Shown here piece by piece: positions 8,611-57,604 of a stretch of 64,000 nt of DNA. The stretch spans positions 32,015 to 96,014 of the forward strand of contig CAZGEA010000004.1 in assembly GCA_964524515.1 (NCBI GenBank), in the 5' to 3' direction. The position numbers and the translations under genes are program-made. The stretch is from an uncultured Gammaproteobacteria bacterium. Lineage in GTDB: Bacteria > Patescibacteriota > Microgenomatia > UBA8517. The notes under the pieces are model-generated. The model was not told the DNA's origin and did no database searches. It saw nothing but the letters and a program-made list of their open reading frames with translations. Numbering within the stretch: position 1 is the first letter of the stretch; the number at the start of each line of letters is the position of its first letter.

Positions 8611-8616
8611 TAAATA

Positions 8617-21650: not shown

Positions 21651-21739
21651 TTACATTTTCATATTTTACATTAAATATGCCTAATAAAAAATAAATCTGT
21701 TAAAAAGTGTTTATGCCTGCCATGAAGATTAATCTTGTG

Positions 21740-21809
21740 TTGCGGGGCCGGGAGTTGAACCCGGCCTGGGAGATTATGAGCCTCCCGTGCAGCCGTACAC
21801 TACCCCGCA
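21740..21809 (-). tRNA. initiator-like tRNA with CAU anticodon (short D loop, no encoded CCA)
   Basis: The reverse complement is TGCGGGGTAGTGTACGGCTGCACGGGAGGCTCATAATCTCCCAGGCCGGGTTCAACTCCCGGCCCCGCAA. The acceptor xGCGGGG/CCCCGCA plus A73 resembles bacterial tRNA-fMet. The anticodon loop is CTCATAA. Confidence 0.7.
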
Positions 21810-25453: not shown

Positions 25454-25469
25454 TTTGTGTTTTGTTTTG

Positions 25470-25540
25470 TGGGCCTGGATGGAATCGAACCATCGTGTCG
25501 ACTTTATAAGAATCGTGTCCTACCATTGAACGACAGGCCC
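25470..25540 (-). tRNA. tRNA with UAU anticodon (tRNA-Ile reading AUA)
   Basis: The reverse complement is GGGCCTGTCGTTCAATGGTAGGACACGATTCTTATAAAGTCGACACGATGGTTCGATTCCATCCAGGCCCA. It has a perfect 7-bp acceptor stem, anticodon stem CGATT/AGTCG, loop CTTATAA, T-loop TTCGATT and discriminator A. Confidence 0.8.
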
Positions 25541-26407: not shown

Positions 26408-28777
26408 CTATAGTTTAGCACGCCTACTTATTTCAGTCTCCACTAGTTTTTCATCTCGACCGTATCTTACTCTGCTCATTTCTTTTATAATCTCCCCCAC
26501 CTTTGGATTTGGAGTTGCCCAATCTTTTCCTATTTTATCTAAATTCATTGAAAATTGAGGAACTGGTTCATTTCTCACCAGAGTTCTTACATATACGTGA
26601 TATTTTTCGATGTTTAATAAATCATCTTCTGAAAAGACTGGGGCGAATTCGTGTGCCAGAAAGTTCGCATCTTGAGTTCCTACACGGTAACTTATTATTG
26701 TTCCTACGTTTCCAAAAATTGCGTTTTTGACTTCATCATCGATTTGACCTACGAATTGATTGGCCACAATTAAATTGAGTCTATATTTTCTGGCTTCAGA
26801 TAATATTTTTGCAAAATCAGGAGTTGCGAAATTTTGGAATTCATCAACATAGAGATAAAAATCTCGTCTTTCGTTTTCTGGAACATCAGTTCGGCTCATT
26901 GCTGCCATTAAAATACGTGGAACCATAACTAACCCTAAGAAGCTTGAGTTTTCCTCTCCTATTTCTCCTTTTGAAACGTTAATAAACAATATTTTTCCAT
27001 TATCCATTACTTCCCGGAAATTAAAAGATGATTCTGATTGTCCAATAATGTTTCTTATCATTTTGTTGGTTACAAACATACCGAATTTTGAAGTGATGTA
27101 ATCTAGGACTTCTGATTTGTGGAAATCTGAAGTTTGGGCAATTTGATCAGTCCAGTAACGGCGTACTATTGGGTCAGTTACATTTGGCAACAGTTCTTGA
27201 ACAAATCTCGAGTCAGTTAGTAATCTCATTAATTCAATAAAGGTTGGCCCCTCTGTTGCATATGAAGTTAATATTGCATTTCTGACGGCGTGTTCAAACC
27301 TTGGGCCCACGATACCAGTTTTGTATGGATCAAATAATTTATACATCATGTTGATGACCGATGCAGCAACGTAGTGCTTTTGATCTTCTGTTTTGGCTTC
27401 TAATAAGTTCATTCCAAAAGGCCTTGAAGTGTCTGATGGATGAAAATAAATTACATCTTCAGCGCGCTCTGGTGGAACAAATTGCAAAAGACTTTCGATT
27501 GCATCACCATGAGGATCAATAAAACATAAACCTTTTCCAGCCTGCATATCTTGGATTATCATTGATTTCAAAAGCTCAGTTTTACCAGTTCCAGTTTTAC
27601 CAATAATATACATATGTCGCTGCCTGTCTTGATCTGAAATAAAGACTCCGCGTTTTGTTCCACGATATGAGGATGAACCTAAATATAGACCTTCTGTTGG
27701 AATTTCAGCTGGAGCTGGTGCCGTTTTTGAATACAACCAAACAATATGTGGAGTTGTAATTTGCTTGTTAGGAAAATGGAACAAAGTTGCCAATTCATCT
27801 GAATTGAGAATTGATACTCTATTTCCCCACCAATTAAACATGGCATGATATCTATAGAGAAAATCTTCCATAAATGCAGATTTATTTCTTATTTTTCTTC
27901 CTCTGAAACCATTTAATTCTCCTGTGAATTGCTCCAAGGCACTTCCCAAATTAGTTAGATGGCCTTTGGCTGATTCTAAAACGTCTGATACCACAATTAC
28001 CCTAATTGAAACTTCGTAACCAGGTTTACTGACTTTTGATTCAATTGCTTCAAGAGTTTTGGCTGGGACTGAAAATTTTGCTTTATTTGGATCTGATTCA
28101 GATTTTTTCGTATTTGAAATAAATCCGCGACCTTCTTTTTGCCAACTACTTTCAGCTGGGGAGACAATAAATTGAATCACTGCTGCTTCGTTATCACCCA
28201 TTTTGGCTAGTGCTGAAGTTAAAAGTGCAAGTGGGTCAGTTGCCAATTCTTTGTAAATTTTGATTGGATAGAAATTTTCTTTTTTTAACTGAAATGATTT
28301 ATATGCAACTTTGCCGTTTTCTGTAAAAATATTATATTCTTCTTCTAATTTAATCTCGGCATCAGGGTATGCACCATGGATTTGTTTTTCTAATAAATCT
28401 TGAAGTCTTTTGGGGCACCAGACATAAAATTTTATTTCTTCTTTTTTGGCTACTAATTCAAATGATATATTTTCTTGAATTGAAAAACGTTGTTTCCATC
28501 CACCTTTTTTTATTGAATATAAGGCTCCAAACAACTGCTCCATTGCATCGATTTTAATTTCGTTATTTCGAGGTACTGCAACTGATAGCAATACTGAATC
28601 AAGAGAATTTTTTTCTCTTTCTCGGTGGCGGAATCTTGTAAAAAATAAATACGCAAAACCACAAAAAACGAAAAATAAAATTCCAAAAATCAAAAGGACT
28701 CCCAAAACAATACCCAAATTAGCTGGTGTTGCGATTAACGAAATTTGATTTGCTGTTTCAATTTGAGAGTTGACCAT
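26408..28777 (-). CDS. membrane-anchored P-loop ATPase of the TraG/TraD/VirD4 (coupling-protein-like) type
   Basis: N-terminal TM hairpin, Walker A GKTGTGKT, Walker B FYLYVDEFQNF, 789 aa. Confidence 0.55.
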   Translation of the reverse strand: MVNSQIETANQISLIATPANLGIVLGVLLIFGILFFVFCGFAYLFFTRFRHREREKNSLDSVLLSVAVPRNNEIKIDAMEQLFGALYSIKKGGWKQRFSIQENISFELVAKKEEIKFYVWCPKRLQDLLEKQIHGAYPDAEIKLEEEYNIFTENGKVAYKSFQLKKENFYPIKIYKELATDPLALLTSALAKMGDNEAAVIQFIVSPAESSWQKEGRGFISNTKKSESDPNKAKFSVPAKTLEAIESKVSKPGYEVSIRVIVVSDVLESAKGHLTNLGSALEQFTGELNGFRGRKIRNKSAFMEDFLYRYHAMFNWWGNRVSILNSDELATLFHFPNKQITTPHIVWLYSKTAPAPAEIPTEGLYLGSSSYRGTKRGVFISDQDRQRHMYIIGKTGTGKTELLKSMIIQDMQAGKGLCFIDPHGDAIESLLQFVPPERAEDVIYFHPSDTSRPFGMNLLEAKTEDQKHYVAASVINMMYKLFDPYKTGIVGPRFEHAVRNAILTSYATEGPTFIELMRLLTDSRFVQELLPNVTDPIVRRYWTDQIAQTSDFHKSEVLDYITSKFGMFVTNKMIRNIIGQSESSFNFREVMDNGKILFINVSKGEIGEENSSFLGLVMVPRILMAAMSRTDVPENERRDFYLYVDEFQNFATPDFAKILSEARKYRLNLIVANQFVGQIDDEVKNAIFGNVGTIISYRVGTQDANFLAHEFAPVFSEDDLLNIEKYHVYVRTLVRNEPVPQFSMNLDKIGKDWATPNPKVGEIIKEMSRVRYGRDEKLVETEISRRAKL

Positions 28778-33979: not shown

Positions 33980-36220
33980 GTGCAAAAAAAGAAAAAGAGA
34001 CTTCAAAAAATACCGAATTCAGGCAGAAAAACATTTATTCAACGATTTAAAATATTGTTTTTCAAAAAGCCAGTAATTCTTTCTTTTGTAGTTATAATTT
34101 TGGCATTGTTTGTTTGGATTTTTTGGGGGCTACCCAACCCTGCCACAATATCTGACAGACAACCCATTTCTACAAAACTACTAGATAGAAATGGGAAGTT
34201 GATTTATGAAATTTTTACTGAGAAAAGGCGTACCCCTATTACCCTTGATCAAATGCCTGATTTCCTTAAAAAGGCAACTATTTCAATTGAAGATAAGGAT
34301 TTTTATAAACACGGTGGATTTTCAATTACTGGAATTGCCAGAGCAGCGTATAAAACGATTTTTAAACAAAATTTGCAAGGCGGATCGACACTTACACAAC
34401 AACTTGTTAAATATAGTTTGTTAACACCTGAGCGCACTTTGATTCGAAAGATTAGAGAATTGGTTTTAACCTTGGTTGTGGAGGCTAGATTTTCAAAAGA
34501 TGAAATATTGACAATGTACTTGAACGAAATTCCATATGGAGGCACAGCTTATGGAATTGAATCAGCAGCACAAGCATATTTTAATAAACATGCAAATGAA
34601 TTAACTTTGTCTGAGGCTTCATATTTAGCAGGATTACCACAGGCGCCGTCAAAGTATTCACCATATGGATCAAACCCTGATTTTGGAAAACAGAGACAAT
34701 TGCAAGTTTTAAAGCGCATGGTTGAAGATGGGTATATTACCCAAGAGGAATCAGACACTGCATTTAAAACAGAGCTTAATTTTATAAAACCAAAAGCGCT
34801 TGAGGCACCACATTTTGCATTATGGATTAAAGAGCAGTTGGCTGAAACATATGGGGATGCCGTAGTTGAAGAAGGTGGACTTAAAGTTACGACTACACTT
34901 GATCTTGATTTACAAAATTATGCACAGGATGTGGTGGCCACTGAAGTTGGAAGATTAATAAAACAAAATGTTGGCAATGGCGCAGCATTAGTTACAATTC
35001 CAAAAACTGGAGAGATATTGGCCATGGTTGGATCGAAAGATTACTTTGCAAAAGATGAAGATGGAAAAGTGAATATAGTATTTGCAAAAAGACAACCTGG
35101 TTCATCGATTAAACCACTAAATTACGCTTTGGCCATTCGTGACGGCAAAATTACAGCATCTTCCCCATTGGTTGATGTACCCACTTGTTTTGGAGTAATG
35201 GGACAGACTCCATATTGCCCTAAAAATTACGATGGAACATTTCATGGAATAGCTCAAACTCGATTTTCACTTGGTAATTCATTAAATATTCCTGCAGTTG
35301 ATGTTTTAGCTTTAAATGGACTGGAGAATTTTATTAATTTTTCAAAAGATATGGGAATTACCACATTTAATACAAATAGTGATTATGGGCTATCTTTAAC
35401 TTTAGGTGGTGGTGAGGTGCGGCCTTATGACATGCTCCAGGCATTTGGAGTATTTGCAAACGGAGGAATTCGTCAAAGCCTTTATGGAATACAGAAAGTT
35501 GAAGATCCAAAAGGGAAAATTTTAGAAGAGAAAAAACCAGAACCATTAACTGGAAGACGAGTATTGGACGAGGGAACTTCATTTATAATTTCTCAAATAC
35601 TTCTTGATAATAATGCACGAACAATGGCATTTGGACCATCTTCCTACTTGAATGTTTCAGGGCACGGTGAGGTATCTGTAAAAACAGGAACAACAAATGA
35701 TAGGCGTGATAATTGGACGATTGGATATAATCCATCAATTGCTGCTTTGGCTTGGGTTGGCAACAATGATTATTCTCCAATGAGTGGAGCCGTATCTGGA
35801 GTATCTGGTGCATCACCAATTTGGAATAGAATAATTAAACGTGCACTGGATAATTCTGAAGCACAGAAGTATGGAGAGACCGCCAAAGGCCATACTTGGC
35901 CCAAACAACCTGAAGCTGTAGTAGGCAAGAATATTTGCGCGACAACTGGAGCTGACCCGGAACAAAACCAAGGACTTGATTGCCCTCAAAGATTTGAATA
36001 TTTTTTGAAGGAATTTTTGCCCACTGCTGTTAAGGGAGGGAGGCAAGATATTCAAATTGATCGATCAACTCAAACGATTGCAAATGGTAAATCGTTACCT
36101 GAAAATGTGGCAACAGAGAATAGACCTGTAATTTTTGATCCACTTGGAACAATGTATTGTATGGATTGTATGCTTCCAACTGAAGCGATTACTATTAAAT
36201 ATCCACTAATTGTAAACTAA
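33980..36220 (+). CDS. bifunctional class A penicillin-binding protein (GT51 transglycosylase + transpeptidase)
   Basis: IEDKDFYKHGGF and GGSTLTQQL (GT51 domain). SSIKP (SxxK), SLN and KTGTT (transpeptidase domain). GTG start at 33980. Confidence 0.85.
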   Translation: MQKKKKRLQKIPNSGRKTFIQRFKILFFKKPVILSFVVIILALFVWIFWGLPNPATISDRQPISTKLLDRNGKLIYEIFTEKRRTPITLDQMPDFLKKATISIEDKDFYKHGGFSITGIARAAYKTIFKQNLQGGSTLTQQLVKYSLLTPERTLIRKIRELVLTLVVEARFSKDEILTMYLNEIPYGGTAYGIESAAQAYFNKHANELTLSEASYLAGLPQAPSKYSPYGSNPDFGKQRQLQVLKRMVEDGYITQEESDTAFKTELNFIKPKALEAPHFALWIKEQLAETYGDAVVEEGGLKVTTTLDLDLQNYAQDVVATEVGRLIKQNVGNGAALVTIPKTGEILAMVGSKDYFAKDEDGKVNIVFAKRQPGSSIKPLNYALAIRDGKITASSPLVDVPTCFGVMGQTPYCPKNYDGTFHGIAQTRFSLGNSLNIPAVDVLALNGLENFINFSKDMGITTFNTNSDYGLSLTLGGGEVRPYDMLQAFGVFANGGIRQSLYGIQKVEDPKGKILEEKKPEPLTGRRVLDEGTSFIISQILLDNNARTMAFGPSSYLNVSGHGEVSVKTGTTNDRRDNWTIGYNPSIAALAWVGNNDYSPMSGAVSGVSGASPIWNRIIKRALDNSEAQKYGETAKGHTWPKQPEAVVGKNICATTGADPEQNQGLDCPQRFEYFLKEFLPTAVKGGRQDIQIDRSTQTIANGKSLPENVATENRPVIFDPLGTMYCMDCMLPTEAITIKYPLIVN

Positions 36221-36280
36221 TTTACTATAATAACTTTTTACCTCTTCAAAGAAAACATAAATAGTATTACTATCTAATGT

Positions 36281-38488
36281 GTGGCAGGCAAGCTCACACA
36301 ATTACTTCTATTCCTAGGTAGGCCTTTTTTTGCCTTAATTTACTATTCCCTATTTTTTGTTTCGTTTGTTTTAACTCATTTTGTTGCAATACTTACTGTA
36401 ATTTTTGTTTTTAGTTTTTTTGTTATTTTTTCTATATCAATATTTTTTGTAGGAATAATTGCAAATTTTGCAAGGTTTTTTAAAAAAAATATAGGATTTG
36501 GAAAAACATTATCACTTGGGTTAATTACATTGTTTTTAGGGATTGGAATTTTTTTGTTTTCCAAAATAACAACCTTTTTAAATAATTTACCTGATCCAAA
36601 ACTTTTGTCTTCTTGGAATAGCCCATTAACTAGTAAAATTTATGACCGAAATGGAATTTTACTTTATTCTTTTTTCAAAAACGAAAACAGAACATATGTT
36701 CCCCTTTCCCAAGTTCCTGTCTATACACGACTTGCTGTAATTGCGGCTGAGGATGCATCTTTTTATAAACACAGTGGTTATTCGATAAGTGGAATTATTA
36801 GATCGGCAATTAAAAATTTGCAGACACATTCGCTTTCTTATGGAGGATCGACAATTACACAGCAACTTCTGAAAAATACACTTTTAACTAATGAGAAAAC
36901 ATGGTCTCGGAAAATTAGAGAGATTGTTTTGGCTATTAATACAGAACGTATTTATTCAAAGGATCAAATTCTTGAAATGTATTTGAACCAAGTTTCTTAT
37001 GGTGGAACTACATATGGAATCGAGGAAGCATCAAAAACTTATTTTAATAAAAAAACATCTGAACTTACACTTTCTGAATCTGCATTTTTGGCTGGACTTC
37101 CTAAATCCCCTTCTACTCTATCTCCTTATACCAATTTACAGGGAGCGATTTCAAGACAGCAGGAAGTACTTAAATTAATGGAGACGAATGGTTTTATAAC
37201 AGCAGATGAATACAGTAGAAGTGTGCAGATTCCAATCGTTATATCCCCTGCAGAGAAAAACATACTCGCACCACACTTTGTAATGTATGTTAGGGATTTG
37301 TTGATTTCAAAGTTTGGAGAGGAAAAACTTTATCGTGGAGGATTAAATATTTATACAACTCTTGATATTAATGTGCAAAATATGGCACAGGAGATTGTTA
37401 AACAAGAACTAAACAAAGTTTCTCAATTGAATGTTACCAATGGGGCAAGCTTGGTTGTAAACCCTAAGACTGGTGAGATTATTGCTATGGTTGGATCAAA
37501 AAACTATGACGATAATTCAATTGACGGAAATGTAAATGTAACAATCAGATTGAGGCCGCCTGGTTCATCAATTAAAATTGTTACTTACTCTTATGCATTA
37601 ACACATGGAATGACTCCGCAAAATATAATTGCTGATATGCCGACTACTTTTAATATTCCCCAAACGAAACCTTATAAACCACAGAATTACGATGGACAAT
37701 ATAGGGGAAATTTAACTTTGAGAAATGCTTTTGCCCAATCTCGAAACATACCTGCAGTTCGTGTGCTTTATCATTTTGGATTAAATAATATCATTCAAAT
37801 GGGGCGAGATATGGGGATTGTTTCATGGCGCAATCCAAGTGATTATGGATTATCACTTACCTTAGGCGGAGCCGATTTAACACTTTTGGAATTAACTCGC
37901 GTTTATTCAACAGTTGCAAATTACGGAAGGCGGCCTGAATTAAATCCATTACTTAAAATAAACACCAGTATTGGCCAGACAATTTATCAGAATCCTTGTG
38001 CTAATTCGGAATTAACATGCAATCAACCTCAAGTGATTGATCCTCGAGCCGCCTTTCAAATTACTGATATTTTAAATGACAATAATGCACGATCTGCTTC
38101 GTTTGGATCAAATTCCGCACTTAATATAAAAAATTATCCACAAATTGCTGTTAAAACTGGAACAAGTAATGATTTGCGGGATAATTTGACCGTTGGTTAT
38201 ACACCAGACCTGGTTGTTGCAGTTTGGGTTGGAAATTCTAATAATTCTCCAATGAAACGTATTGCATCTGGAATTACTGGAGCTGCCCCTATTTGGAGCA
38301 ATATTATGAAAAATTTAATTGAAAAAAATAAAAAAGATATAAAATGGGAAATTCCACAAGGACTAACTCAAATTAATTGTAATGGAAGAAGTGACTGGGT
38401 TTTTTCTGATGCAGCAATGGACAAAGCATGTTCACAAATTGATAGCAATCAAAATTCAGCTAGCGTGATTTTTCAGCCTCAAATATAA
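36281..38488 (+). CDS. second bifunctional class A penicillin-binding protein (paralog)
   Basis: AEDASFYKHSGY, GGSTITQQL, SSIKI, SRN and KTGTS motifs. GTG start and a long multi-TM N-terminus. Confidence 0.85.
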   Translation: MAGKLTQLLLFLGRPFFALIYYSLFFVSFVLTHFVAILTVIFVFSFFVIFSISIFFVGIIANFARFFKKNIGFGKTLSLGLITLFLGIGIFLFSKITTFLNNLPDPKLLSSWNSPLTSKIYDRNGILLYSFFKNENRTYVPLSQVPVYTRLAVIAAEDASFYKHSGYSISGIIRSAIKNLQTHSLSYGGSTITQQLLKNTLLTNEKTWSRKIREIVLAINTERIYSKDQILEMYLNQVSYGGTTYGIEEASKTYFNKKTSELTLSESAFLAGLPKSPSTLSPYTNLQGAISRQQEVLKLMETNGFITADEYSRSVQIPIVISPAEKNILAPHFVMYVRDLLISKFGEEKLYRGGLNIYTTLDINVQNMAQEIVKQELNKVSQLNVTNGASLVVNPKTGEIIAMVGSKNYDDNSIDGNVNVTIRLRPPGSSIKIVTYSYALTHGMTPQNIIADMPTTFNIPQTKPYKPQNYDGQYRGNLTLRNAFAQSRNIPAVRVLYHFGLNNIIQMGRDMGIVSWRNPSDYGLSLTLGGADLTLLELTRVYSTVANYGRRPELNPLLKINTSIGQTIYQNPCANSELTCNQPQVIDPRAAFQITDILNDNNARSASFGSNSALNIKNYPQIAVKTGTSNDLRDNLTVGYTPDLVVAVWVGNSNNSPMKRIASGITGAAPIWSNIMKNLIEKNKKDIKWEIPQGLTQINCNGRSDWVFSDAAMDKACSQIDSNQNSASVIFQPQI

Positions 38489-49601: not shown

Positions 49602-50016
49602 CTCGCCTTACATGTCTTTCTTCATTTGAAAATTGTGTATTAATAAATGTTTTTACAATGTTGATTGCACCCTCAAGATCCACAAAATCAGCACCAAGAG
49701 ATAATATATTTGCGTTGTTGTGTTCACGAGCAAGGGTTGCCATATCGGTATTAATGCAAAGTGCTGCACGAACTCCTTTTACTTTATTTGCAGCAATTTG
49801 TTCACCGTTACCTGATTTACCAATGACTACACCAAATGAATCACTATTACCCACTGTTGATTCAGCTGCTTTGATTATAAATTCCACATAATCGTCTTCT
49901 GGATCAAAAATTGAATTTCCACAATCTATTACCTCATGCTTTTCCCCTACCAAATAACCTTTTAGTTCTTCTTTAAGTTTAAAACCGACGTGATCAGTTG
50001 CTATAAATATTTTCAT
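49561..50016 (-). CDS. rpiB: ribose-5-phosphate isomerase B
   Basis: MKIFIATDHVGFKLKEELK, GKSGNGEQIAANK and RHVRRV motifs, 151 aa. Confidence 0.85.
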   Translation of the reverse strand: MKIFIATDHVGFKLKEELKGYLVGEKHEVIDCGNSIFDPEDDYVEFIIKAAESTVGNSDSFGVVIGKSGNGEQIAANKVKGVRAALCINTDMATLAREHNNANILSLGADFVDLEGAINIVKTFINTQFSNEERHVRRVEKISQYESSKTL

Positions 50017-50669
50017 TTGAATCCTTCTATTAAATTTTCTAAAGCTGTTTTTGGATCATCTGCTTTTACTATATTTGTGGCAACTGCAATCCCAATGGCT
50101 CCTAACTGAAGAGATTTTTGAATATCAGTTTTGTCATGAATCCCTGCGCCAACAATTAATGGAATACCTGCTTTTTTTGCAATTTCAAAAACTTCAGAAA
50201 TCACTTCTGGTTTTGCAGTTGCAACTGAGATATCAGTGCGACCAATGAATTCTGGAGGTTCATAAGAAACATAATCAGGTTTTAATTCGATTAATTTTTT
50301 AAATTCTTCAATATCGCTTGCAAAAATTAAAGTTTTTAAACCTACTTCTTTTGCTTTTTGGTGAGCTATTTTTAAATCATCAACATTTGCAAACTTGTGT
50401 TCCGAGTGATTCAGAAGTGTTCCAACGGCCCCTGATTCTTTAACTGAACTTGCTGAAACCCAGCCAGTTTTTGGACCTTCATCAATTGGATCAATATGTT
50501 GTGCCCAAATTTCAAACTTATTTAGTTTTGCTAAATTTTGAATATCAATAGTTTGAACTGCAGCGACAACTTTTATTTCTTTTAGATTTGCATTTGAGAG
50601 ATTGATTAAAAGATTTTGTGCATTAACGCCTACTGATTGACTATATGCTTTGAAATTAAGAACAATCAT
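50013..50669 (-). CDS. tpiA: triosephosphate isomerase, short archaeal type
   Basis: MIVLNFKAY, LLNHSEH, YEPPEFIG and VGAGI motifs, 218 aa. Confidence 0.8.
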   Translation of the reverse strand: MIVLNFKAYSQSVGVNAQNLLINLSNANLKEIKVVAAVQTIDIQNLAKLNKFEIWAQHIDPIDEGPKTGWVSASSVKESGAVGTLLNHSEHKFANVDDLKIAHQKAKEVGLKTLIFASDIEEFKKLIELKPDYVSYEPPEFIGRTDISVATAKPEVISEVFEIAKKAGIPLIVGAGIHDKTDIQKSLQLGAIGIAVATNIVKADDPKTALENLIEGFK

Positions 50670-50923: not shown

Positions 50924-51646
50924 TTAAGTAATCAATAAACCAACTACTTTAAACCAGATTGGACTATCTACTGTCAAGACCCTACCGGTTGATGCTGAGA
51001 GATTAGCAGTTACTTCCACTGGAATTTTTGTAATTTTTAAATCAATTATTCTTGTTCCTTTGACTTCATAATGCAATTCACCAAATTCGTTTTCAGTAAG
51101 TAGCATCGGTGAATTTGGATCGATTTCATCGAGTAAACGAGCATTGATTGCCAATTCAGCTGCATCTTGAGGAAGCAATACAATAAACCTTAAGCCTGTT
51201 GGGGCTTTAACAGAGATTAAAGCAGTACCTGGATCAATTTCAACTGGGTATTCGGTTGAAGCAGAATTCTCTCCTTGGATTAGTATGAATTTTCCATCAC
51301 TTACTTTTATTGAGAGGTTTTTTGATTCACCTCGGGATTCAACTTCAACAACGTCACCTTCAAAATTGGTAATATCTGCTTTGGCTTTGTTGTTTCCCGA
51401 ATCTTGAATTACCTGGAAACTATTTCCTTCTTTGTATACTGAAATTTTTCCATTTAAATTTGAATCTAAATTGGCTATTTTTTTAATTTTTATTTCTCGA
51501 TCTGATTCAGCACCTAAGACATTCCATGAAGTTTTGCCGTTTGATGAAATTGTGACTATTGCGTCTGCCAAAACAATATTGGGAGTGACTAAAAAAATTA
51601 ATCCAAAGACAGCAAAATAAAATGATTTTTTCATTTGATCATTCAT
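50924..51646 (-). CDS. secreted hypothetical protein (paralog family with the 55479..56072 product)
   Basis: Signal peptide. The C-terminal YEVKGTRIIDLKITKIPVEVTANLSASTGRV resembles YVITGYQDKRFLGVFPIKLTRVVTYSANERTV of the other protein. Confidence 0.5.
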   Translation of the reverse strand: MNDQMKKSFYFAVFGLIFLVTPNIVLADAIVTISSNGKTSWNVLGAESDREIKIKKIANLDSNLNGKISVYKEGNSFQVIQDSGNNKAKADITNFEGDVVEVESRGESKNLSIKVSDGKFILIQGENSASTEYPVEIDPGTALISVKAPTGLRFIVLLPQDAAELAINARLLDEIDPNSPMLLTENEFGELHYEVKGTRIIDLKITKIPVEVTANLSASTGRVLTVDSPIWFKVVGLLIT

Positions 51647-51653
51647 GATATCA

Positions 51654-52142
51654 CTAATAGCTTGCTTCCAGGAGGACTTTGTCTAATTTTTTGATTTGAA
51701 TTTTTGAATATGAAGTTAAGTCTTCTTGTTTTGAAACTTCAAGCATATAACCGCCTTTTCCAGTTTCAAGATTTCCAATGTTTATTTGGCTACCATCTGG
51801 TTTAGATAGTACTAATAAATATTTTTCATTTTTTTGCAAATCTGGAAGATCTGCTAACACCAACAAATCAAATTTGTTGTTTGAATATTTTCTAGAAACC
51901 ACACCTGAGTAATTTTCCCCATCCCCTGAAATGTCTTTCAATTCTTTTTTATCTGAATCTACTGGAAGAGTAATTCTAAAAGAATCTTCAATTCCTTTGA
52001 CAGAACCAACTGGTGAACTTGTTACAAATGGAGTTGTTTCTGGGTTTTGATTGCTATTTCTATTTTTTATAAACCAAAAGAAACCACCGATTACAATTAC
52101 AACCATTAATCCAATTAGTGCGTCTGAAAATTTAGGCTTCAT
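51654..52142 (-). CDS. membrane-anchored hypothetical protein
   Basis: 162 aa with an N-terminal TM helix and a beta-rich extracytoplasmic part. Confidence 0.45.
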   Translation of the reverse strand: MKPKFSDALIGLMVVIVIGGFFWFIKNRNSNQNPETTPFVTSSPVGSVKGIEDSFRITLPVDSDKKELKDISGDGENYSGVVSRKYSNNKFDLLVLADLPDLQKNEKYLLVLSKPDGSQINIGNLETGKGGYMLEVSKQEDLTSYSKIQIKKLDKVLLEASY

Positions 52143-52190
52143 TTAACTTAAAATAAAATAACACTAGCCTATAGAATTGGCAAGAGGGTT

Positions 52191-52313
52191 TCATTCACAA
52201 CAAGGATCTTTGAAGCCGCAGTTGGTGCAAATTGCGTCCTTACTCCCTGCCACTACTCCAATTTTGGATCCACACACAGGACAATCTTGTTTTTGCGTTT
52301 CAACTTTTGACAT
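52191..52313 (-). CDS. 40-aa zinc-ribbon micro-protein
   Basis: The minus-strand reading is MSKVETQKQDCPVCGSKIGVVAGSKDAICTNCGFKDPCCE, with two CxxC knuckles. It falls below the ORF-track length cut-off. Confidence 0.45.
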   Translation of the reverse strand: MSKVETQKQDCPVCGSKIGVVAGSKDAICTNCGFKDPCCE

Positions 52314-52317
52314 GTTG

Positions 52318-52323
52318 TATAAT
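52318..52323 (+). promoter_or_regulatory. perfect TATAAT -10 box placed for a leaderless transcript of the 52331 ORF
   Basis: TATAAT ends 7 nt before the ATG at 52331 and no Shine-Dalgarno sequence lies between them. Confidence 0.3.
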
Positions 52324-52330
52324 TTATATA

Positions 52331-52521
52331 TGAAGTTTGCAACTGTTGTCCAGATAATGGCATTTATACATCACTTGGTTTGGAGTGTGCTTGGACTTTT
52401 GGTTTTATTTTTTGTTTATTACTTTTTTACCAGTGGTTATAAAGCTTTTATAAACCCAGATCAGCAATTTTTTGCAAGCCCAACACCTGTGGTTACTTTG
52501 ACTCCAAAACCCGTAAAATAG
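52331..52521 (+). CDS. small single-TM membrane protein
   Basis: MKFATVVQIMAFIHHLVWSVLGLLVLFFVYYFF... This is the C-terminal part of the 52177..52521 track ORF. The upstream part of that ORF is antisense to the zinc-ribbon ORF. Confidence 0.45.
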
Positions 52522-52528
52522 GCCATAC

Positions 52529-52557
52529 TTGACAATTGGCACTTTAGGGTGTATAGT
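52529..52557 (+). promoter_or_regulatory. near-consensus sigma70 promoter
   Basis: TTGACA (52529-52534), an exact 17-nt spacer, then TATAGT (52552-52557). Confidence 0.65.
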
Positions 52558-52563
52558 GCTAGT

Positions 52564-53013
52564 ATAAGTTAATTAATAGTTACCGCACGTATATCGGAAA
52601 CTACACTAATTTTGAAGGCGAGGAAAAGGATAAGCCTATTTACATCATTTAACTTTAAGCTAGCCATAGAAAAGAAGGCCGAGGCTGATATTAACAATTT
52701 GTGCCTACTTGGCCAAAACCTGCTTTGACCTTCTTTTCTGAGGCTATGCCTCAGTGATCGAGCTTTACGCTCGTTAACAATTAAAGCGAGTTATACAGAC
52801 ACAAGCCTAATTTGTGCCTGACAACAAGCTCTCGTGGGGTTCACAGGGAATCAGAAATCCTTGTTTCTAAAGACCAATCTTTTAAATTAATATCTTTATA
52901 GAAACAATGAAAACTTAAAATTTTTTAATTTTCTGTTTCCTGTGAGCCTCATGAGTATCTTAAAAAGCTTGTCTGTTGGTGCACATCAGCGCAAGCGCTC
53001 ATAGTCAGAGGCC
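52564..53013 (+). ncRNA. long structured 5' leader or independent ncRNA (unclassified)
   Basis: About 450 nt with no ORF between the promoter and the GGAGG RBS at 53014. It contains a roughly 18-bp stem (52661-52680 / 52727-52746) and a 167-nt rod hairpin (52816-52982). G-U wobble pairs are compatible only with a plus-strand RNA. Confidence 0.55.
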
Positions 53014-53022
53014 GGAGGATGT

Positions 53023-55077
53023 ATGTTTAAATCATCATCACGCTCCCTGTTTAGGGTAGCAATCGTGGCAATCATTTTCTTGATTGTCTCCGCTTATTCG
53101 TACTCGCCTACCACCGCTGGTGGCGAAACCCCAACCCCTGTGGTTGGAAATGATGGCGGAAATAGCAACGGACCTGCTCCTTCTGAGCAAACCCCGGTGC
53201 CAGCCGATACGACAGTTCCTCCCGCGCCGACAGAAGTCGCCGCGACCGCTGTTCCAGCCACACCCGTGACTGTGAATCCAACTAACACTCCTGTGATAGT
53301 TGACATCCAACCTTCAGCTTCACCCGAAGTTGTGGGAAACCAGCCCGCTCCCTCACCTGAGGCGATTTTGGCACCGAGTAAGACGCCTGGAATTTCGCAA
53401 ATCCAGAGTCCGCCCTCGATTGAGCCAGAACCAAGCTGCGATGGGTGGAACATAAAGATCGTAAATCCCGGGTATTATCTCCAGTTTCGCTGGGAATACC
53501 ACAAAGATTCCGATCCTATTAAGGGAGACTGGAAGCCAGAAAAAATCAATACCAAAGGTGGAATTACTTTCCATTTCCAATGGTATGGTGGAGACTGGGG
53601 TCAGGCAGACTATACATGGGATATTACCCGTGGACCGGAATGCCCGCCGTTTGTCGTAGCGACAAATACTTCTGTGCCGCCAACGGAAACTAATGTTCCG
53701 CCAAGTGCGACACCTAGTGCGACGTTCACAAACACGCCGCAACCGAGCAATACGCCGACTGTGACGCCTAGCAACACACCGTTGCCTAGTGCGACACCGA
53801 CGTACACGGAGACGAACACGAGCACGCCTGTGCCACCTACGTTTACCGCGACGTATACATCAACAGCCACGGCGACTCACACCGAGACGCCAACAGTTGC
53901 GCCGACGTATACATTCACGCCTTCACAGACACCGATTCCACAACAAACTGTTGTGAATATTTCGGTTACTGCGACGGTAGCACCAGTCGTTATTAAAACT
54001 TCTGGTGATGAGTGCAAAGAACCGGCCATCAATGGCTTTATGGACTTTGGGGGTTTCAATTTCCAAGTTCAGGTTTTGAGCGAAGGTCGTTCTAAGCCAA
54101 AGTCGATGGCGACCAAAAATCTCTTGGCTTCAGATGCTTCGCTTTCACCAAATGGTGAATGGGTTGCCTTTGTAGCAGCTGATCCAAACGGACAGTTTAC
54201 AGAGATTCGTTTGGCGAGGTTTGTCGATCTGGCAAAAAGCTGGTCTGTCTACAAGAGCTACAGTAATGTAGTCTCTGCACCAGCAGTAAACGACAATGGA
54301 GACATCTTGTTTGTCGTTGACTTCAATGACCAAGATCGTCGTTCCGAGGTATTGCTTGTTCGCAAGAATGGCAAGCCAACGGAAGTAGTCAGCCCAGGAG
54401 ATAGCCCATTTTGGATCAATAATACAACTGCAGGGTACATTAACCCGAGCAGCCTGATCTATGAATGGGAAATCGATCAAGAGATTCACAGTGAATCTGG
54501 CGCGTATAGTTTGTATGGTTGGGTTTTCATGAATGAAGTGACAGTTGCCCGAAATGGTGACTTGTTAGCTTTCGTGGGCAGCAAGAATGGTATCAGCCAA
54601 ATTGTTGTCTTTAATCGGATTACCCAGTCCCAAATCTGGCAATCGCCAGTCGGAGCGAATCAACCAGTCATGAGCCGCGATGGTCGTTTTATCGTTTTTG
54701 TTCACAATGGGCAAATCAAAGCTCATCAGATGAACAAGGCCGAAGACCAAATTACGGTCATTACGAATGTTGATAAGTCTGTTGCGAACCCAGTGCTTTT
54801 GTGCACCAATCAAGTGATCTTCACTTTGAACGGTAACACAATTGTCTCGGTTTCGTATCAGCCCAGCATGAAGTCAGTTTCTGAGTCTGGTTTGACAGTT
54901 CTCAAGAGTCCAAGCAACAATTTGCTCGCGACATATTTTGGGAGTCACACCCAGACCCGTCCAGAGATTAAAACAGGAGATTCGAATTTTGTCCGCATGG
55001 CAAACAATCTTCGGTTGAATCTGGAAAAGCCTGCTACAAGTATTGCTTTGTTAGCACAAAGCTTTACCAGCCGATAA
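53023..55077 (+). CDS. GC-rich secreted/membrane-anchored protein with PT-rich linkers, a small Cys-bounded domain and a TolB/PD40-like beta-propeller region
   Basis: 684 aa with an N-terminal TM anchor. Linkers read TPxPT and TNTPTVTPSNTPLPSATPTYTET. C-terminal repeats resemble PD40 blades (SPNGEWVAFVA, NDNGDILFVV, ARNGDLLAFVG, SRDGRFIVFV). GGAGG lies 4 nt upstream of the ATG. Confidence 0.7.
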   Translation: MFKSSSRSLFRVAIVAIIFLIVSAYSYSPTTAGGETPTPVVGNDGGNSNGPAPSEQTPVPADTTVPPAPTEVAATAVPATPVTVNPTNTPVIVDIQPSASPEVVGNQPAPSPEAILAPSKTPGISQIQSPPSIEPEPSCDGWNIKIVNPGYYLQFRWEYHKDSDPIKGDWKPEKINTKGGITFHFQWYGGDWGQADYTWDITRGPECPPFVVATNTSVPPTETNVPPSATPSATFTNTPQPSNTPTVTPSNTPLPSATPTYTETNTSTPVPPTFTATYTSTATATHTETPTVAPTYTFTPSQTPIPQQTVVNISVTATVAPVVIKTSGDECKEPAINGFMDFGGFNFQVQVLSEGRSKPKSMATKNLLASDASLSPNGEWVAFVAADPNGQFTEIRLARFVDLAKSWSVYKSYSNVVSAPAVNDNGDILFVVDFNDQDRRSEVLLVRKNGKPTEVVSPGDSPFWINNTTAGYINPSSLIYEWEIDQEIHSESGAYSLYGWVFMNEVTVARNGDLLAFVGSKNGISQIVVFNRITQSQIWQSPVGANQPVMSRDGRFIVFVHNGQIKAHQMNKAEDQITVITNVDKSVANPVLLCTNQVIFTLNGNTIVSVSYQPSMKSVSESGLTVLKSPSNNLLATYFGSHTQTRPEIKTGDSNFVRMANNLRLNLEKPATSIALLAQSFTSR

Positions 55078-55105
55078 CTCGCTTTAGTTAAGCACATTCG
55101 CACAA

Positions 55106-55230
55106 GGCTGATAGATAGTTTTCTCGATAATAGAGAATATCAGCCCACAGCAGGGAGAGATTTTTTTAAGATGAGATGCAAGCACGCATCAAGGGTACAC
55201 CCATCATTTTAATTAATCATCTCCCCGCTG
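55106..55230 (+). ncRNA. structured 3'-UTR module: hairpin plus four-helix junction abutting the ribozyme
   Basis: Hairpin: GGCUGAUA/UAUCAGCC with inner UUCUC/GAGAA (55106-55145). Junction P1: CAGC-GGG-GAGAU/AUCUC-CCC-GCUG (55148-55161 / 55219-55230). P2: AAGAUGA/UCAUUUU. P3: GAUGC/GCAUC. P4: GGG-UACA-CCC. Confidence 0.5.
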
Positions 55231-55234
55231 CACA

Positions 55235-55294
55235 GTAAGTCTGCAGATATTAAACTCTCTGCACTGATGAGCCCCAAGAGAGGGCGAAACTTAC
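55235..55294 (+). ncRNA. type III hammerhead self-cleaving ribozyme
   Basis: GUAAGU-C(cut)-UGCAGA[UAUUAAACUC]UCUGCA-CUGAUGA-GCCC[CAAGAGA]GGGC-GAAA-CUUAC. All invariant core nucleotides are present: C3 U4 G5 A6 N7 G8 A9, G12 A13 A14, the A15.1-U16.1 pair, C17 and G10.1-C11.1. Helices I (6 bp) and II (4 bp) are closed by loops; helix III (6 bp) is open. Confidence 0.85.
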
Positions 55295-55382
55295 ATTAAA
55301 ACTAGATAATATGTTTCCTTTAGCTTTTTGCGCAATTTGAAAAAAATTGCTTAAAGAGGTAGAGGGTAACCTTTATCGACCG

Positions 55383-55428
55383 ATATACACCCTGCACCCA
55401 CCAACTTCTATTGGGTGCAGGGGTGTGT
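55383..55428 (+). other. long GC-rich hairpin (possible 3'-end/stability element; no adjacent U-tract)
   Basis: AUAUAC(A)CCCUGCACCCA pairs with UGGGUGCAGGGGUGUGU around an 11-nt loop. Two U-G wobbles (55384/55427 and 55386/55425) fit only a plus-strand RNA. Confidence 0.5.
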
Positions 55429-55441
55429 ACCGATAACAGGC

Positions 55442-55470
55442 TTGAATTTTTGAGTTCAAGATGTTAGTGT
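55442..55470 (+). promoter_or_regulatory. possible promoter for the 55479 gene (near-leaderless)
   Basis: TTGAAT, a 17-nt spacer, then TAGTGT. The -10 box ends 8 nt before the ATG and no SD is visible. Confidence 0.3.
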
Positions 55471-55478: not shown

Positions 55479-56072
55479 ATGAACAAACGAGTTAAATTAA
55501 CTCTTACACTTTTGACTGCAGCTTCGATCTTCCCCATTTCTTATTCTTTATCTCACGCTGAATCATCTTCAATAAAACTAAACAACACAGTAACTAATGG
55601 GACTATAAAAACTGAAATCCAAACATCAGGAAACGCTAAAGCCACGGTTTCAACAACAGTAAACGGAAAAAATACAACTGTGACATCTGCTCAAGGATCA
55701 ACAACCGTTAAAACCACAAATGAAAAAGGAGAAACTACGACCAAAACACTCGAAGATGGATCTGAAGTAAAAATAGAAAATGGATCAGTTAAAGTGATGA
55801 CTGAAAATGGAGAGAAAACTGTTTCTGTAACAACTGAGCAAGCAGTGGAGGCGATTGTTAACAATGGAACAATATCACATGAATCAAACATTAAAATTGA
55901 AACCAGTGGAGATAATGTTAATTATGTAATTACAGGATACCAGGACAAGAGATTTTTGGGTGTGTTTCCTATTAAATTGACCCGTGTTGTGACTTACTCT
56001 GCAAATGAGAGAACAGTTTCTTCAGTTCATAGGTCTTTTTTGACCAAAGTACTAGATCGTCTTTCTTTTTAA
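55479..56072 (+). CDS. secreted Thr-rich hypothetical protein (paralog family with the 50924..51646 product)
   Basis: Signal peptide MNKRVKLTLTLLTAASIFPISYSLSHA, host-like AT-rich codons, and a shared C-terminal motif. Confidence 0.55.
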   Translation: MNKRVKLTLTLLTAASIFPISYSLSHAESSSIKLNNTVTNGTIKTEIQTSGNAKATVSTTVNGKNTTVTSAQGSTTVKTTNEKGETTTKTLEDGSEVKIENGSVKVMTENGEKTVSVTTEQAVEAIVNNGTISHESNIKIETSGDNVNYVITGYQDKRFLGVFPIKLTRVVTYSANERTVSSVHRSFLTKVLDRLSF

Positions 56073-57604
56073 AAGAGACTTTGTTGAGATTTTTTTAGTT
56101 TAAATTTAAACCTTTTTTCTTTAATTTTTGCAGTTTTTGGATCTTCTTTTTGCGGAGTTACATTTTCTACTAACATCGCGAGGTCTGATTTTTGACTAGA
56201 AATTATAATTAAATTATTTTTTGCTCGTGTCACTGCCACATACATTAATCTTTTTTCTTCATCAAAATTATTTTTATTTTTAATTTCTGAATCCAAAATT
56301 ATTACATTTTTGAACTCCAATCCTTTTGATGAATGAATTGATGACAAAGTTACAAACTCTAGATTTTCATCGAAGTATTCTTTATTTTTTAGTTCCTCAA
56401 TGTAATTTAAGAAATCAGAAATTTTTAGATATTTTTGATCAATCAGATTTATTCTTTGTAATAGTTCATCTGATAAATCAATATTATTTTCTTTTATCAC
56501 TTCAAATATTACTTGGTTTTTATTTTCATTTTCTTTTAAAATTTGTATTAGAGTTTCAAATTCTTTTGATTGCCAAATTGAATCCCCTATTTTTTGGTAT
56601 GGAATACCAGATTCTGTTAACTTTTCAGAAATATGTTTTGCCAAATGATGATTTCTATATAAAACCGCGAAATCTTTAAAACTTGAATTTTCCTCACTAT
56701 GAAAATTACTTGATGACATTAAATCAATCCCTCCAACTTTTGAAATTATGAAGTCTACTATAAATTGCGATTGGGATTTGTTATCAAGAGATAATATATT
56801 TTGAATAATACTTTGAGATTTGTTATGTGCTACAAAATTTGCTGCAACTGGAAATAATTCTTTGGAGATATTTATTATTTCTTTTGTGTTTCTGTAATTT
56901 ATATTTAGTGTTATTGTTTTTACTTTTGGAAAATCTTTTTTGATAGTCTCAAAAATATTAGAATCTGAACCTCGAAATGAATAGATCGATTGCAGTGGAT
57001 CGCCAACTACGACTAGGTTTGTTTTAGTACTTTTTAATTTTTTAATAATTTCATATTGAATTATGTTTGTGTCTTGAAACTCATCAATCAAAATATAATC
57101 AAAATCCAAATCGATATTTGTACCTAAAAAATAAAGTAATAAATCATCGAAATCAATTTTACCGCTATCTGATAATAATTTATTATATTTATCGATGAGT
57201 AAATCTTGCTTTTTTGATAGTTTGCTTTTAAAGAGACTTATATAATTAGAGATATTTCTTTTTGATTTTTTGAATTCTTTTGAGAGAATTGACAGGGTTT
57301 CATTTCTTTCAAAATTTGTAATTATTGTTAAATTTTTATTTATGGATTGGAGATAATCAAAAGCCAGTGAGTGAAATGTTTCTGTTATAACAGATTTATT
57401 TTTGATTCTTTCTTTTAATTCATTTGCCGCTCTCTTTGTAAAAGTTAAAGCTAAAATTTTTGAAGGTTTAATGCTTTTATCTTTAATTAAGTAATTAATT
57501 TTTTCTGACAATACTCTTGTTTTTCCAGTTCCCGGGCCAGCAACAATTATGAGTACGTTTGAATCATCTTTAATCGCTTTTTTTTGATTTTCATTTAGCT
57601 GCAT
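56069..57604 (-). CDS. UvrD/PcrA-family SF1 DNA helicase (short, 511 aa)
   Basis: AGPGTGKT Walker A, LIDEFQDTN, VGDPLQSIYSFRG, and a C-terminal VTRAKNNL. Confidence 0.8.
   Translation of the reverse strand: MQLNENQKKAIKDDSNVLIIVAGPGTGKTRVLSEKINYLIKDKSIKPSKILALTFTKRAANELKERIKNKSVITETFHSLAFDYLQSINKNLTIITNFERNETLSILSKEFKKSKRNISNYISLFKSKLSKKQDLLIDKYNKLLSDSGKIDFDDLLLYFLGTNIDLDFDYILIDEFQDTNIIQYEIIKKLKSTKTNLVVVGDPLQSIYSFRGSDSNIFETIKKDFPKVKTITLNINYRNTKEIINISKELFPVAANFVAHNKSQSIIQNILSLDNKSQSQFIVDFIISKVGGIDLMSSSNFHSEENSSFKDFAVLYRNHHLAKHISEKLTESGIPYQKIGDSIWQSKEFETLIQILKENENKNQVIFEVIKENNIDLSDELLQRINLIDQKYLKISDFLNYIEELKNKEYFDENLEFVTLSSIHSSKGLEFKNVIILDSEIKNKNNFDEEKRLMYVAVTRAKNNLIIISSQKSDLAMLVENVTPQKEDPKTAKIKEKRFKFKLKKSQQSLF

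Follow-up and report, generated by a model that had tools for sequence, protein, structure and literature searches.

We describe here a compact transcription unit in a 64,000-nucleotide (nt) stretch of contig CAZGEA010000004.1 (assembly GCA_964524515.1, forward-strand positions 32,015 to 96,014), which comes from an uncultured bacterium and is referred to below, in its whole length, as the window. The unit, at positions 52522-55440, consists of a promoter, a structured leader RNA, an open reading frame (ORF) for a protein of 684 amino acids (aa), and a structured trailer RNA that contains a hammerhead ribozyme. In all likelihood, it is a resident, conserved, ribozyme-bearing unit. An earlier note on this DNA had listed a promoter, a structured leader of ~450 nt, the 684-aa ORF, a multihelix RNA, a hammerhead, and a long hairpin, in this order, and had taken them for a single unit. 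Each part was located, and the recurrence of the layout across lineages bears out that the parts belong together.

Results

A single hammerhead ribozyme downstream of the ORF

The hammerhead begins 157 nt past the stop codon of the ORF and is the only one on either strand of the 64 kb. Scored with the Rfam model, it reaches 48.2 bits, 0.3 bit below the gathering score of 48.5 (E = 1e-8; whole-window E = 1.6e-7). Its core is complete, with CUGAUGA at 55265-55271 and GAAA at 55287-55290 (C3-U4-G5-A6-N7-G8-A9 ... G12-A13-A14). Stems I (6 bp) and II (4 bp) are closed by loops, stem III (6 bp) is open, and the cleavage triplet GUC occupies 55239-55241.

Hammerheads were found 3' of the ORF in five of the seven loci of the family (related loci carry L numbers in this text), 148-330 nt past the stop codon. 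The core is invariant across five lineages, with the exception of U7A in L015; the cleavage triplet is GUC also in L017 and L015, GUU in L013, and UUC in L012. When four lineages were aligned, 95% of the cells were paired, six pairs showed double changes, and stems I and II were fully compensated. None of 500 shuffles was as good, and slid registers were far worse, too. Rfam bit scores of the family hammerheads were 48.2, 41.2, 35.5, and 28.7. A family model (R1), trained on four hammerheads with the L012 copy left out, assigned 64.7 bits to the window hammerhead and recovered the L012 copy, missed by Rfam, with 33.6 bits (E = 1.8e-6). A second ribozyme in the leader was considered and rejected; there is one hammerhead per unit.

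In whole-transcript folds of four lineages, the 5' strand of stem III pairs over 3-7 bp with a site near the 5' end of the leader (52638-52643 with 55235-55240 in the window; 8613-8619 with 11290-11296 in L017). After cleavage, this modeled pairing, which is weak and perhaps an effect of minimum free energy (MFE) folding, may make a terminal panhandle.

Recurrence and residence of the unit

With the C-terminal domain of the ORF product as query, an exhaustive HMMER search yielded a small protein family (P0008, P0010, P0011, P0012, P0015, and P0016). Word-indexed protein searches returned P0002 only and, with a profile, P0016 only, and scans of metagenome contigs with a two-sequence propeller alignment or with the promoter pattern gave no matches. 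Every detectable homolog resides in a low-GC genomic background like that of the window, and the resemblance to Chloroflexi-type proteins that the earlier note had guessed at finds no support.

L017 and L018, which represent a related species in two JGI samples, carry an orthologous unit at the same syntenic site. The gene order shared with the window is transketolase, GAPDH, PGK, RpiB, triosephosphate isomerase (TIM), a 240-aa protein, a 162-aa protein, a small zinc ribbon protein, the unit, a 197-aa protein, and UvrD. Identity to the window proteins amounts to 49-83% for housekeeping proteins, 44-50% for neighboring exported proteins, and 40% over the full length of the ORF product. Since the unit is syntenic and has diverged in step with its neighbors, it was present at this site in the common ancestor; one-piece horizontal acquisition, which the earlier note had proposed, thus does not hold as a recent event. 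An empty site was not seen either: the unit is present in three other strain-level assemblies and in L017/L018, the few relatives that could be compared.

L013 and L015 have the full layout of promoter, 410- to 535-nt leader, GC-rich ORF, trailer, and hammerhead at another site, and the N-terminal domains of their ORFs are different. The RNA arms accordingly accompany homologs of the ORF elsewhere. Both loci have a tRNA gene on the opposite strand ~200 nt upstream; in L013, the 5' end of a 23S rRNA gene comes next. L012, cut at its 5' end, contains the ORF and the hammerhead; L014 has a tRNA gene ~360 nt downstream of the stop codon; and L016 ends 216 nt past the stop codon. L011 is identical to L017 from mid-ORF onward. 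Its positions 1-1669, joined at L017 position 9931, are 53% GC DNA with RmlD-like and small lytic transglycosylase genes, which replaces the leader and the 5' half of the ORF. This join reflects either chimeric assembly or the insertion of foreign DNA in the Pro/Thr (PT) linker of the protein.

A helix between the leader and the stop codon

RNAduplex energies of the leader against the stop region did not separate from those of shuffles, as RNAduplex permits long loops. We therefore looked, for every leader, for the Watson-Crick helix of greatest length that it could form with the 42 nt surrounding its own stop codon. In the window, 52779-52794 and 55074-55089 form 13 uninterrupted Watson-Crick pairs, which become 16 bp when one G-U pair is counted; none of 500 shuffles matched this. 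In the four lineages with a leader, the best helix is found at the same place with different sequences and a semiconserved core (AGCGAG/CUCGCU). Its 5' strand directly follows a UUAACA(A) motif, 221-234 nt ahead of the AUG, and its 3' strand begins -6 to +6 nt relative to the stop codon. Shuffle P values were 0-0.038 per locus, and the chance of hitting the same 14-nt span of a ~450-nt leader in three further lineages is, by our estimate, ~3e-5. The 5' strands read UAAAGCGAGUUAU in the window (13 bp Watson-Crick), AAUUAAAGCGA in strain L002 (11 bp Watson-Crick), AGUUAUUACUU in L017 (11 bp, plus 5 bp, Watson-Crick), GAUUCAAACGAGA in L013 (13 bp Watson-Crick), and AGUUUAAGC in L015 (9 bp, plus 7 bp, Watson-Crick).

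Unconstrained MFE folding of whole transcripts from start to cleavage site (2.0-2.7 kb; 2.68 kb for the window) recovered the helix as 16, 16, 13, and 17 bp. Between L002 and the window, the 3' strand shows two A/G changes opposite U, by which Watson-Crick and wobble pairs are interchanged and pairing is kept in the sense RNA alone. This sense-only G-U pairing and the bulges in L015 and L017 favor an RNA helix over a DNA inverted repeat. The folds and comparisons suggest that the leader-to-stop helix, described first in this analysis, pairs in the RNA.

Base composition and structure of the coding region

The unit stands out from a window with a mean GC content of ~33%. In 1-kb windows on the ORF, GC reaches 0.525 (53001-54000) and 0.455 (54001-55000), compared with 0.26-0.40 elsewhere in the window, and in 300-nt windows it is 0.553 at 53050-53349 versus 0.29-0.30 at 51400-51849. 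The ORF as a whole has a GC content of 0.486 and a GC content at third codon positions (GC3) of 0.474, versus a GC3 of 0.224 +/- 0.037 for the 48 other ORFs (z = 6.7). GCG, CCG, ACG, and TCG each contribute 26-34% of their own codon families (background, 3-5%), GTC contributes 23% (background, 13%), and AGA, which makes up 47% in the background, contributes 0%. The tetranucleotide distance of 52522-55440 is 0.46, 13 standard deviations above the 0.175 +/- 0.021 of other 2.9-kb windows. The arms of the unit, with GC contents of 0.39 and 0.41, are richer than other intergenic stretches (0.26-0.36); a single stretch at 0.44 contains tRNAs. Compared with 100 dinucleotide shuffles, none of which was equally stable, the leader folds with a z score of -7.0 and the trailer with one of -10.1. 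The earlier note had described the jump in G+C, an ORF set apart by GCG/CCG/ACG/GTC-type codons, and GC-richer, heavily base-paired arms, and in all three respects these measurements agree with it.

The deviation is a family trait. GC3 is 0.45-0.65 for the ORFs of the window and all six further family loci measured, versus 0.20-0.42 for neighboring genes of host composition; in L017, the ORF has a GC3 of 0.445 and its neighbors 0.24-0.32. In L013, a 70-aa membrane protein gene 3' of the hammerhead (3626-3838; GC3, 0.68) matches the main ORF in GC richness, and the GC-rich block of this locus thus extends across the ribozyme. The UvrD-like helicase gene adjoining the unit in the window (56050-57400) has the lowest GC content of the window (0.22-0.26), which makes the right edge of the GC island look sharper.

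The RNA of the coding region is more structured than expected as well. In sliding 150-nt windows, the ORF has a mean folding z score of -1.98, with 46% of the windows below -2, spread across both halves. Means were -0.33 to +0.42 for six other genes of the window, +0.8 for the downstream 197-aa gene, +0.1 to +1.0 for ordinary GC-rich genes in the left part of L011, and -2.25 for a 23S rRNA fragment. Homologous ORFs at seven other loci gave means of -1.06 to -2.04, and the sense strand was more negative than the antisense strand in five of five ORFs. Thus, by these folding predictions, the ORF appears to be folded about as densely as rRNA, a property described first in this analysis. Since GC richness and excess structure co-occur in the family, foreign origin alone is not a sufficient explanation.

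Promoter, leader, and trailer

Coordinates of the unit and its parts are given in Table 1. Transcription is predicted to start at ~52565, which gives the window a leader of 455 nt. A promoter with a similar spacer and discriminator (TTGACAATTGGCA..TATAGTGCTA) precedes the homologous units in L017, L013, and L015; in the latter two, it is recognizably similar as TTGACA[A/T]TT[G/A]GCACT...TATACTGC.

Table 1. Predicted features of the unit and the gene following it, in window coordinates
Feature	Positions	Strand	Remarks
Sigma-70 promoter TTGACA-17-TATAGT, near-consensus	52529-52557	+	11/12 positions match; unique in window
Leader part A	52565-52778	+	Long imperfect hairpin (~52659-52746), small hairpins, terminal UUAACAA (52774-52780)
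Long-range helix, 5' strand (AAUUAAAGCGAGUUAU)	52779-52794	+	229 nt 5' of AUG; complementary to 55074-55089
Leader part B	52795-53022	+	125-nt hairpin (52831-52955), hairpin ahead of the ribosome-binding site, Shine-Dalgarno GGAGG (53014-53018)
Hypervariable mosaic segment	52973-53323	+	Start codon, signal/anchor, first PT linker; 58-82% identity to L005, indels
684-aa ORF	53023-55077	+	GC3, 0.474
Long-range helix, 3' strand (AUAACUCGCUUUAGUU)	55074-55089	+	Overlaps stop codon UAA (55075-55077)
Trailer hairpin (GGCUGAUA...UAUCAGCC)	55106-55145	+	From folding
Multihelix trailer domain	55148-55230	+	Closing pairs CAGC.../...GCUG; 3 nt 5' of hammerhead; from folding
Type III hammerhead ribozyme	55234-55295	+	Rfam RF00008; cleavage predicted after C55241 (GUC/U)
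Post-ribozyme hairpin	55317-55359	+	From folding
Long hairpin with conserved loop (CCACCAACUUCU.UUGGGUGG)	55386-55429	+	Conserved with L017
Final small hairpin ahead of next gene, without U-tract	55441-55460	+	From folding
Gene of 197-aa exported protein	55479-56072	+	GC3, 0.23, host-like

The architecture of leader part A is common to L017, L013, and L015. The long-range helix is preceded by UUAACA(A) in three lineages and by UUUACAA in L017. The motif UUAACAAUU, which has A-R-N-like repeats, occurs at 52693-52700 and 52774-52781, in L013 at ~1032, 1136, 1271, and 3513, and in L015 at ~421. Its copies are located in the leaders of the units and once in a trailer, one of them always immediately 5' of the long-range helix, and the motif may be a protein-binding site. 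The size of leader part B is constant in four lineages (223-236 nt). Its 125-nt hairpin is conserved with L017 by compensatory changes, and a covariance model of the hairpin (R2) scored 114.9 bits in L017.

In the trailer, a closed domain equivalent to 55148-55230 adjoins the ribozyme in L017, L013, and L015, and CCCGCU is present 5' of the ribozyme in three lineages. The long hairpin at 55386-55429 was the sole stretch of the arms picked up by blastn against L017 (84% identity), and its stem shows a compensatory change (CUGCACCC/GGGUGCAG against CUCCAUCC/GGGUGGAG). A 19-nt direct repeat, CCGATAAC(N)..., at the two trailer ends (55071-55089 and 55430-55448; 79% identity) is probably due to chance.

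The ORF product

The protein is predicted to begin with a hydrophobic anchor or signal, followed by a PT-rich linker, a small Cys-bounded domain (aa ~138-210) common to L017, a second PT linker, and a C-terminal TolB-like beta-propeller of ~300 residues (aa ~330-640). An AlphaFold model of moderate confidence (predicted local distance difference test score, 68.8) contains ~28 strands, and the top Foldseek matches were TolB structures (E = 6e-10 to 1e-9; probability, 1.0; template modeling score, 0.45-0.6). The likeness to TolB/PD40 proteins lies in the six-bladed propeller predicted in the C-terminal 300 residues. Unlike TolB, the protein lacks the TolB N-terminal domain and a Tol-Pal context, and its propeller comes joined to PT linkers and to N-terminal domains that vary. 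Searches by sequence were negative: PD40 (PF07676) did not match the ORF at E <= 0.1, with subthreshold matches only in the relatives P0010 and P0012, and neither Pfam nor NCBIfam contained anything significant for the ORF, P0002, or the 197-aa protein. A search of PDB sequences with the C-terminal domain of P0002 gave no match, which leaves a sortase-like impression gained by eye unsupported. The best description of the ORF product is that of an exported binding protein that varies between strains.

Strain variation

In three strains, the flanks including the arms are mostly 94-100% identical (90% in one 50-nt window), and the ORF differs. The strain represented by L005/L003 carries the window allele outside the mosaic segment 52973-53323. 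The L002 allele encodes 521 aa; it has only the first 100 residues and part of the PT linker in common with the window allele, the middle and C-terminal domains differ, and identity is 32% overall. The hammerhead and both arms of L002 are the same as in the window. The arms being constant and the ORF mosaic or replaced between strains, the former form a constant frame and the latter the exchangeable part. A diversity-generating retroelement target was rejected on account of indels and all base changes over 350 nt or replacement of whole domains; we found neither a reverse transcriptase (RT) gene nor a repeat copy belonging to such an element.

Neighboring genes and the host

No intrinsic terminator and no plus-strand promoter were detected between the end of the ORF and position 55479. 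The 197-aa gene that starts there is kept 3' of the unit in L017, L018, and L011 (49% identity). It is probably cotranscribed with the ORF and parted from it by the predicted ribozyme cleavage. Upstream, the ORF scan had missed a gene for a 40-aa CxxC...CxxC zinc ribbon protein (52194-52316, minus strand), which is 78% identical in L017, and a gene for a 63-aa membrane protein just ahead of the promoter (52330-52521, plus strand), for which an exact look-up of the protein returned no record. The 114-aa ORF at 52177-52521 is an artifact in which the antisense of the 40-aa gene is merged with the 63-aa gene.

The window encodes GroEL, two PBP1A paralogs, NrdJ, and glucan phosphorylase, so the host is a bacterium; it is low in GC and probably Patescibacteria-like. 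TIM (50013-50669, minus strand) is of archaeal type; its relatives among GTDB species representatives were from Aenigmatarchaeota only (33-36% identity). Other observations in the window include a tRNA-Ile with anticodon UAU, unusual for bacteria (25469-25540, minus strand), two tRNA-Met genes (21575-21809), a 789-aa protein with weak matches to VirB4-, VirD4-, and TraD-type secretion or conjugation ATPases (26408-28777, minus strand), and the tandem pair of class A penicillin-binding protein (PBP1A family) genes (33980-38488, plus strand).

Discussion

A proposed mechanism

Conservation of the unit, its ribozyme, and its RNA structure can be combined into one mechanism, for which, taken as a whole, we see even chances: a resident, vertically inherited unit whose mRNA is selected for structure, closed at its ends, and provided with its 3' end by a ribozyme. 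In the window, the strong promoter would drive transcription through the ORF and on into the 197-aa gene. The hammerhead would cut after C55241 and part the ORF messenger from the downstream gene, leaving a 2',3'-cyclic phosphate a few nucleotides behind the closed multihelix domain at 55148-55230. Such a 3' end is expected to resist 3' exonucleases and polyadenylation. The leader-to-stop helix would join both ends, place the rest of the leader and the ORF in one loop, and bring terminating ribosomes near the start site, and endonucleases preferring single-stranded AU-rich RNA would be kept off the densely folded ORF. In combination, these features might give rise to a long-lived, end-protected, possibly reinitiating messenger. 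GC-rich composition would then be the price of RNA structure in an AT-rich genome and not a mark of recent import, and the conserved arms could act as homology arms between which ORF alleles are swapped and recombined among strains. We infer self-cleavage in vivo, stabilization or reinitiation, and selection for structure as the cause of the GC content from the features described above. Bacterial hammerheads have been proposed to process transcripts into units of differing stability (PMC3088659; PMC6765202); the mechanism outlined here agrees with these proposals and would provide them with a specific, conserved setting.

It is tempting to go further and to regard the unit as a member of a class of messengers built like viral RNA genomes, with ordered structure throughout, a closing helix, a hammerhead-made 3' end, and GC richness as a by-product; we put this forward tentatively and lean toward doubting it. 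The RNA of the unit might also have an additional noncoding role.

Several observations weigh against the proposed mechanism. L014 has no hammerhead and an ordinary terminator instead; the ribozyme is therefore not indispensable. Stem III is weak (3-4 bp) in L013 and L015, and the covariation statistics are thin, as they draw on only four to five lineages, two of which are closely syntenic pairs. The covariance model of the 125-nt leader hairpin found no match in L013, L015, L012, L014, or L016; as it matched L017 alone, conservation of this hairpin is detectable only between the window and L017. MFE prediction of long-range pairs is generally unreliable. The rare GC-rich codons should slow translation and are a poor fit with a simple highly expressed gene, and the association of RNA structure selection with GC content is a correlation.

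Alternative explanations

The unit might instead be a horizontally acquired or mobile nonautonomous cassette that carries its own promoter and RNA arms and is mobilized in trans, as the earlier note had suggested. We consider this unlikely. It would fit the strong compositional deviation, the presence of the unit in at least three genomic contexts, with tRNA genes near the units of L013, L015, and L014, the exchange of ORF alleles between strains, and the junction of the L011 ORF with 53% GC DNA. Similarity between lineages, moreover, starts exactly at the -35 box. However, we detected no integrase, transposase, relaxase, or RT in the unit, in the Pfam-annotated genes from ~10 kb upstream, or in three NCBIfam-scanned genes downstream at 58.9-63.8 kb (the neighbors at 56.1-58.9 kb were named via Pfam matches of their L011 homologs only). 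The unit boundaries show no target duplication and no repeats beyond chance 8-mers, and the inverted repeat of 13-16 bp is internal and encloses part of the leader and the ORF (52779-52794/55074-55089). The earlier note had likewise found no integrase, transposase, or RT, no terminal inverted repeats, and no clear target duplication. Mobilization in trans finds no foothold in the form of a second ribozyme, retrozyme-type repeats, or a recombinase. Being syntenic in L017/L018 and diverged like its neighbors, the unit has long been resident and has still not taken on the composition of its host. A search of 1.8 billion representative proteins revealed no GC-rich donor, and homologs belonged to low-GC hosts; tblastn against phage records gave no match; and ordinary GC-rich genes have no excess of RNA structure. 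The unit is best described as a ribozyme-terminated expression cassette, a phrase already used in the earlier note.

Also unlikely, in our view, is that the hammerhead mainly regulates the 197-aa gene or the ratio of the two proteins, the multihelix domain acting as a sensor and the 5'-OH leader left by cleavage setting the fate of the mRNA. The ribozyme is flanked by two co-oriented genes, between which neither a terminator nor a promoter was found, and this agrees with such a role, as do the conserved structured domain adjoining stem III in all lineages and the arrangement in L013, where the ribozyme parts the ORF from the GC-rich 70-aa membrane protein gene. That hammerheads are allosterically controlled has been put forward before (PMC3088659). 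However, L015 has an intrinsic terminator within ~110 nt 3' of the ribozyme and no cotranscribed gene, downstream genes vary among lineages, and the Rfam scan revealed no known aptamer. The long-range helix and the structured ORF would be left unexplained.

The helix strands could also be DNA inverted repeats of a phase variation switch that flips leader part B and the ORF relative to the fixed promoter. In its favor, the repeats flank exactly the promoterless part of the unit, the pair is kept in four lineages with a semiconserved core, and a variable surface protein gene is a typical target of phase variation. We nonetheless judge such an inversion to be quite improbable, as every assembly examined shows a single orientation, no recombinase was found among the Pfam-annotated genes from ~10 kb upstream or the three NCBIfam-scanned genes downstream (58.9-63.8 kb), the repeats carry the bulges noted above and G-U-type differences that keep pairing in sense RNA only, and the remainder of the unit is plainly constructed at the RNA level.

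A hammerhead, virus-like ordered structure along the RNA, and closed ends would be compatible with an RNA-level element, that is, a processed transcript that, like a retrozyme or a viroid-like RNA with a coding insert, undergoes circularization, copying, or transfer and serves as the intermediate of allele exchange. The presence of only one ribozyme per unit, on either strand, means that no 5'-OH end is available for ligation. Together with the failure to find an RT, a primer-binding site, or repeated arms and with the chromosomal, syntenic position of the unit, this makes such an element very improbable. The unit was also rejected as a retrozyme, as it has one hammerhead, a core consisting of the 684-aa ORF, and no direct repeats of its arms. 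Two further candidates were rejected, an integron cassette (no attC or integrase) and a group I or II intron with a looped ORF (no Rfam signal at E <= 10).

Assembly of two organisms' DNA into a chimera, suggested by the sharp GC step and by L011, a related contig that looks chimeric or insertion-bearing inside the ORF, can practically be dismissed: assemblies made independently from three further data sets (two runs assembled by Logan and one NCBI metagenome assembly) span the left (L001/L004 and L005) and right (L003 and L002) junctions, and the whole locus is present in a related species.

Relation to known systems

Two elements of the unit have precedents, as hammerheads are known from bacterial transcripts and pairing of leader and trailer from a few bacterial mRNAs. 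The unit shares with bacterial and phage hammerheads (Perreault et al. 2011, PMC3088659; Rfam RF00008) the canonical core, the three stems, the GUC site, and a location between co-oriented genes where cleavage would yield gene-length messengers. Those hammerheads are found in clusters with integrase and prophage genes, next to changing neighbor genes and frequently as pairs or triplets (PMC3088659). The window ribozyme, in contrast, is single, tied to one protein family, accompanied by a fixed leader and trailer, and located in a chromosomal, nonphage context in genomes that are low in GC and probably Patescibacteria-like. A literature search on hammerheads in the candidate phyla radiation (CPR)/Patescibacteria found nothing relevant.

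The discontinuous hammerhead in the 3' untranslated region (UTR) of mammalian Clec2 genes lowers expression by removing the poly(A) signal (PMC6765202). As in the unit, that ribozyme is situated between the stop codon and the normal 3'-end signal, and cleavage redefines the mRNA's 3' end. Unlike in Clec2, the bacterial cut, leaving a cyclic phosphate behind a stable domain, would be expected to protect the RNA.

In the leader-to-stop helix, the unit differs from known cases by its position ~225 nt 5' of the AUG and on the stop codon, by its covariation across lineages, and by its combination with a ribozyme. In icaR of Staphylococcus aureus and hbs of Bacillus subtilis, leader-trailer pairing within one mRNA affects decay and translation, the partner of the 3' UTR being either the Shine-Dalgarno region or the very 5' end. 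Paired flanks that enclose a long, densely folded RNA are found in the processing stalks of rRNA precursors, and ordered RNA structure on a genome scale is found in RNA viruses. The folding z score of the unit equals that of the 23S fragment; unlike in rRNA precursors and RNA viruses, the enclosed RNA is a protein-coding cellular messenger, and neither an RNase III site nor a replicase is implied.

Flagellin, pilin, and capsule loci have conserved flanks and exchanged central parts. The unit resembles them in its near-identical flanks and its mosaic or fully replaced coding sequence between strains, and it is unlike them in that its flanks are transcribed structured RNAs and its high-GC deviation is kept across species. 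As far as our searches reach, the combination of one ribozyme bound to one gene family, a covarying ORF-enclosing helix, rRNA-grade structure of the coding region, and a compositional island kept across species is undescribed in the literature.

For nearly all self-cleaving ribozymes of bacteria, glmS excepted, the biological role is still called "largely elusive" (PMC6765202). A hammerhead locked to one gene family and a fixed mRNA architecture in several genomes provides a concrete system in which the role of such a ribozyme can be tested. For genome scanning, the unit calls for caution, as a sharp island of GC content and codon usage that lacks mobility genes can have been resident for long, with selection for RNA structure maintaining its composition. 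If messengers of viral-like construction exist as tentatively suggested here, bacterial hammerheads would gain a gene-linked job, the making of protected 3' ends, and RNA structure would be able to create a compositional island. For poorly known bacteria with small genomes, the unit adds a hypervariable surface protein gene that likely matters for contact with hosts or phages.

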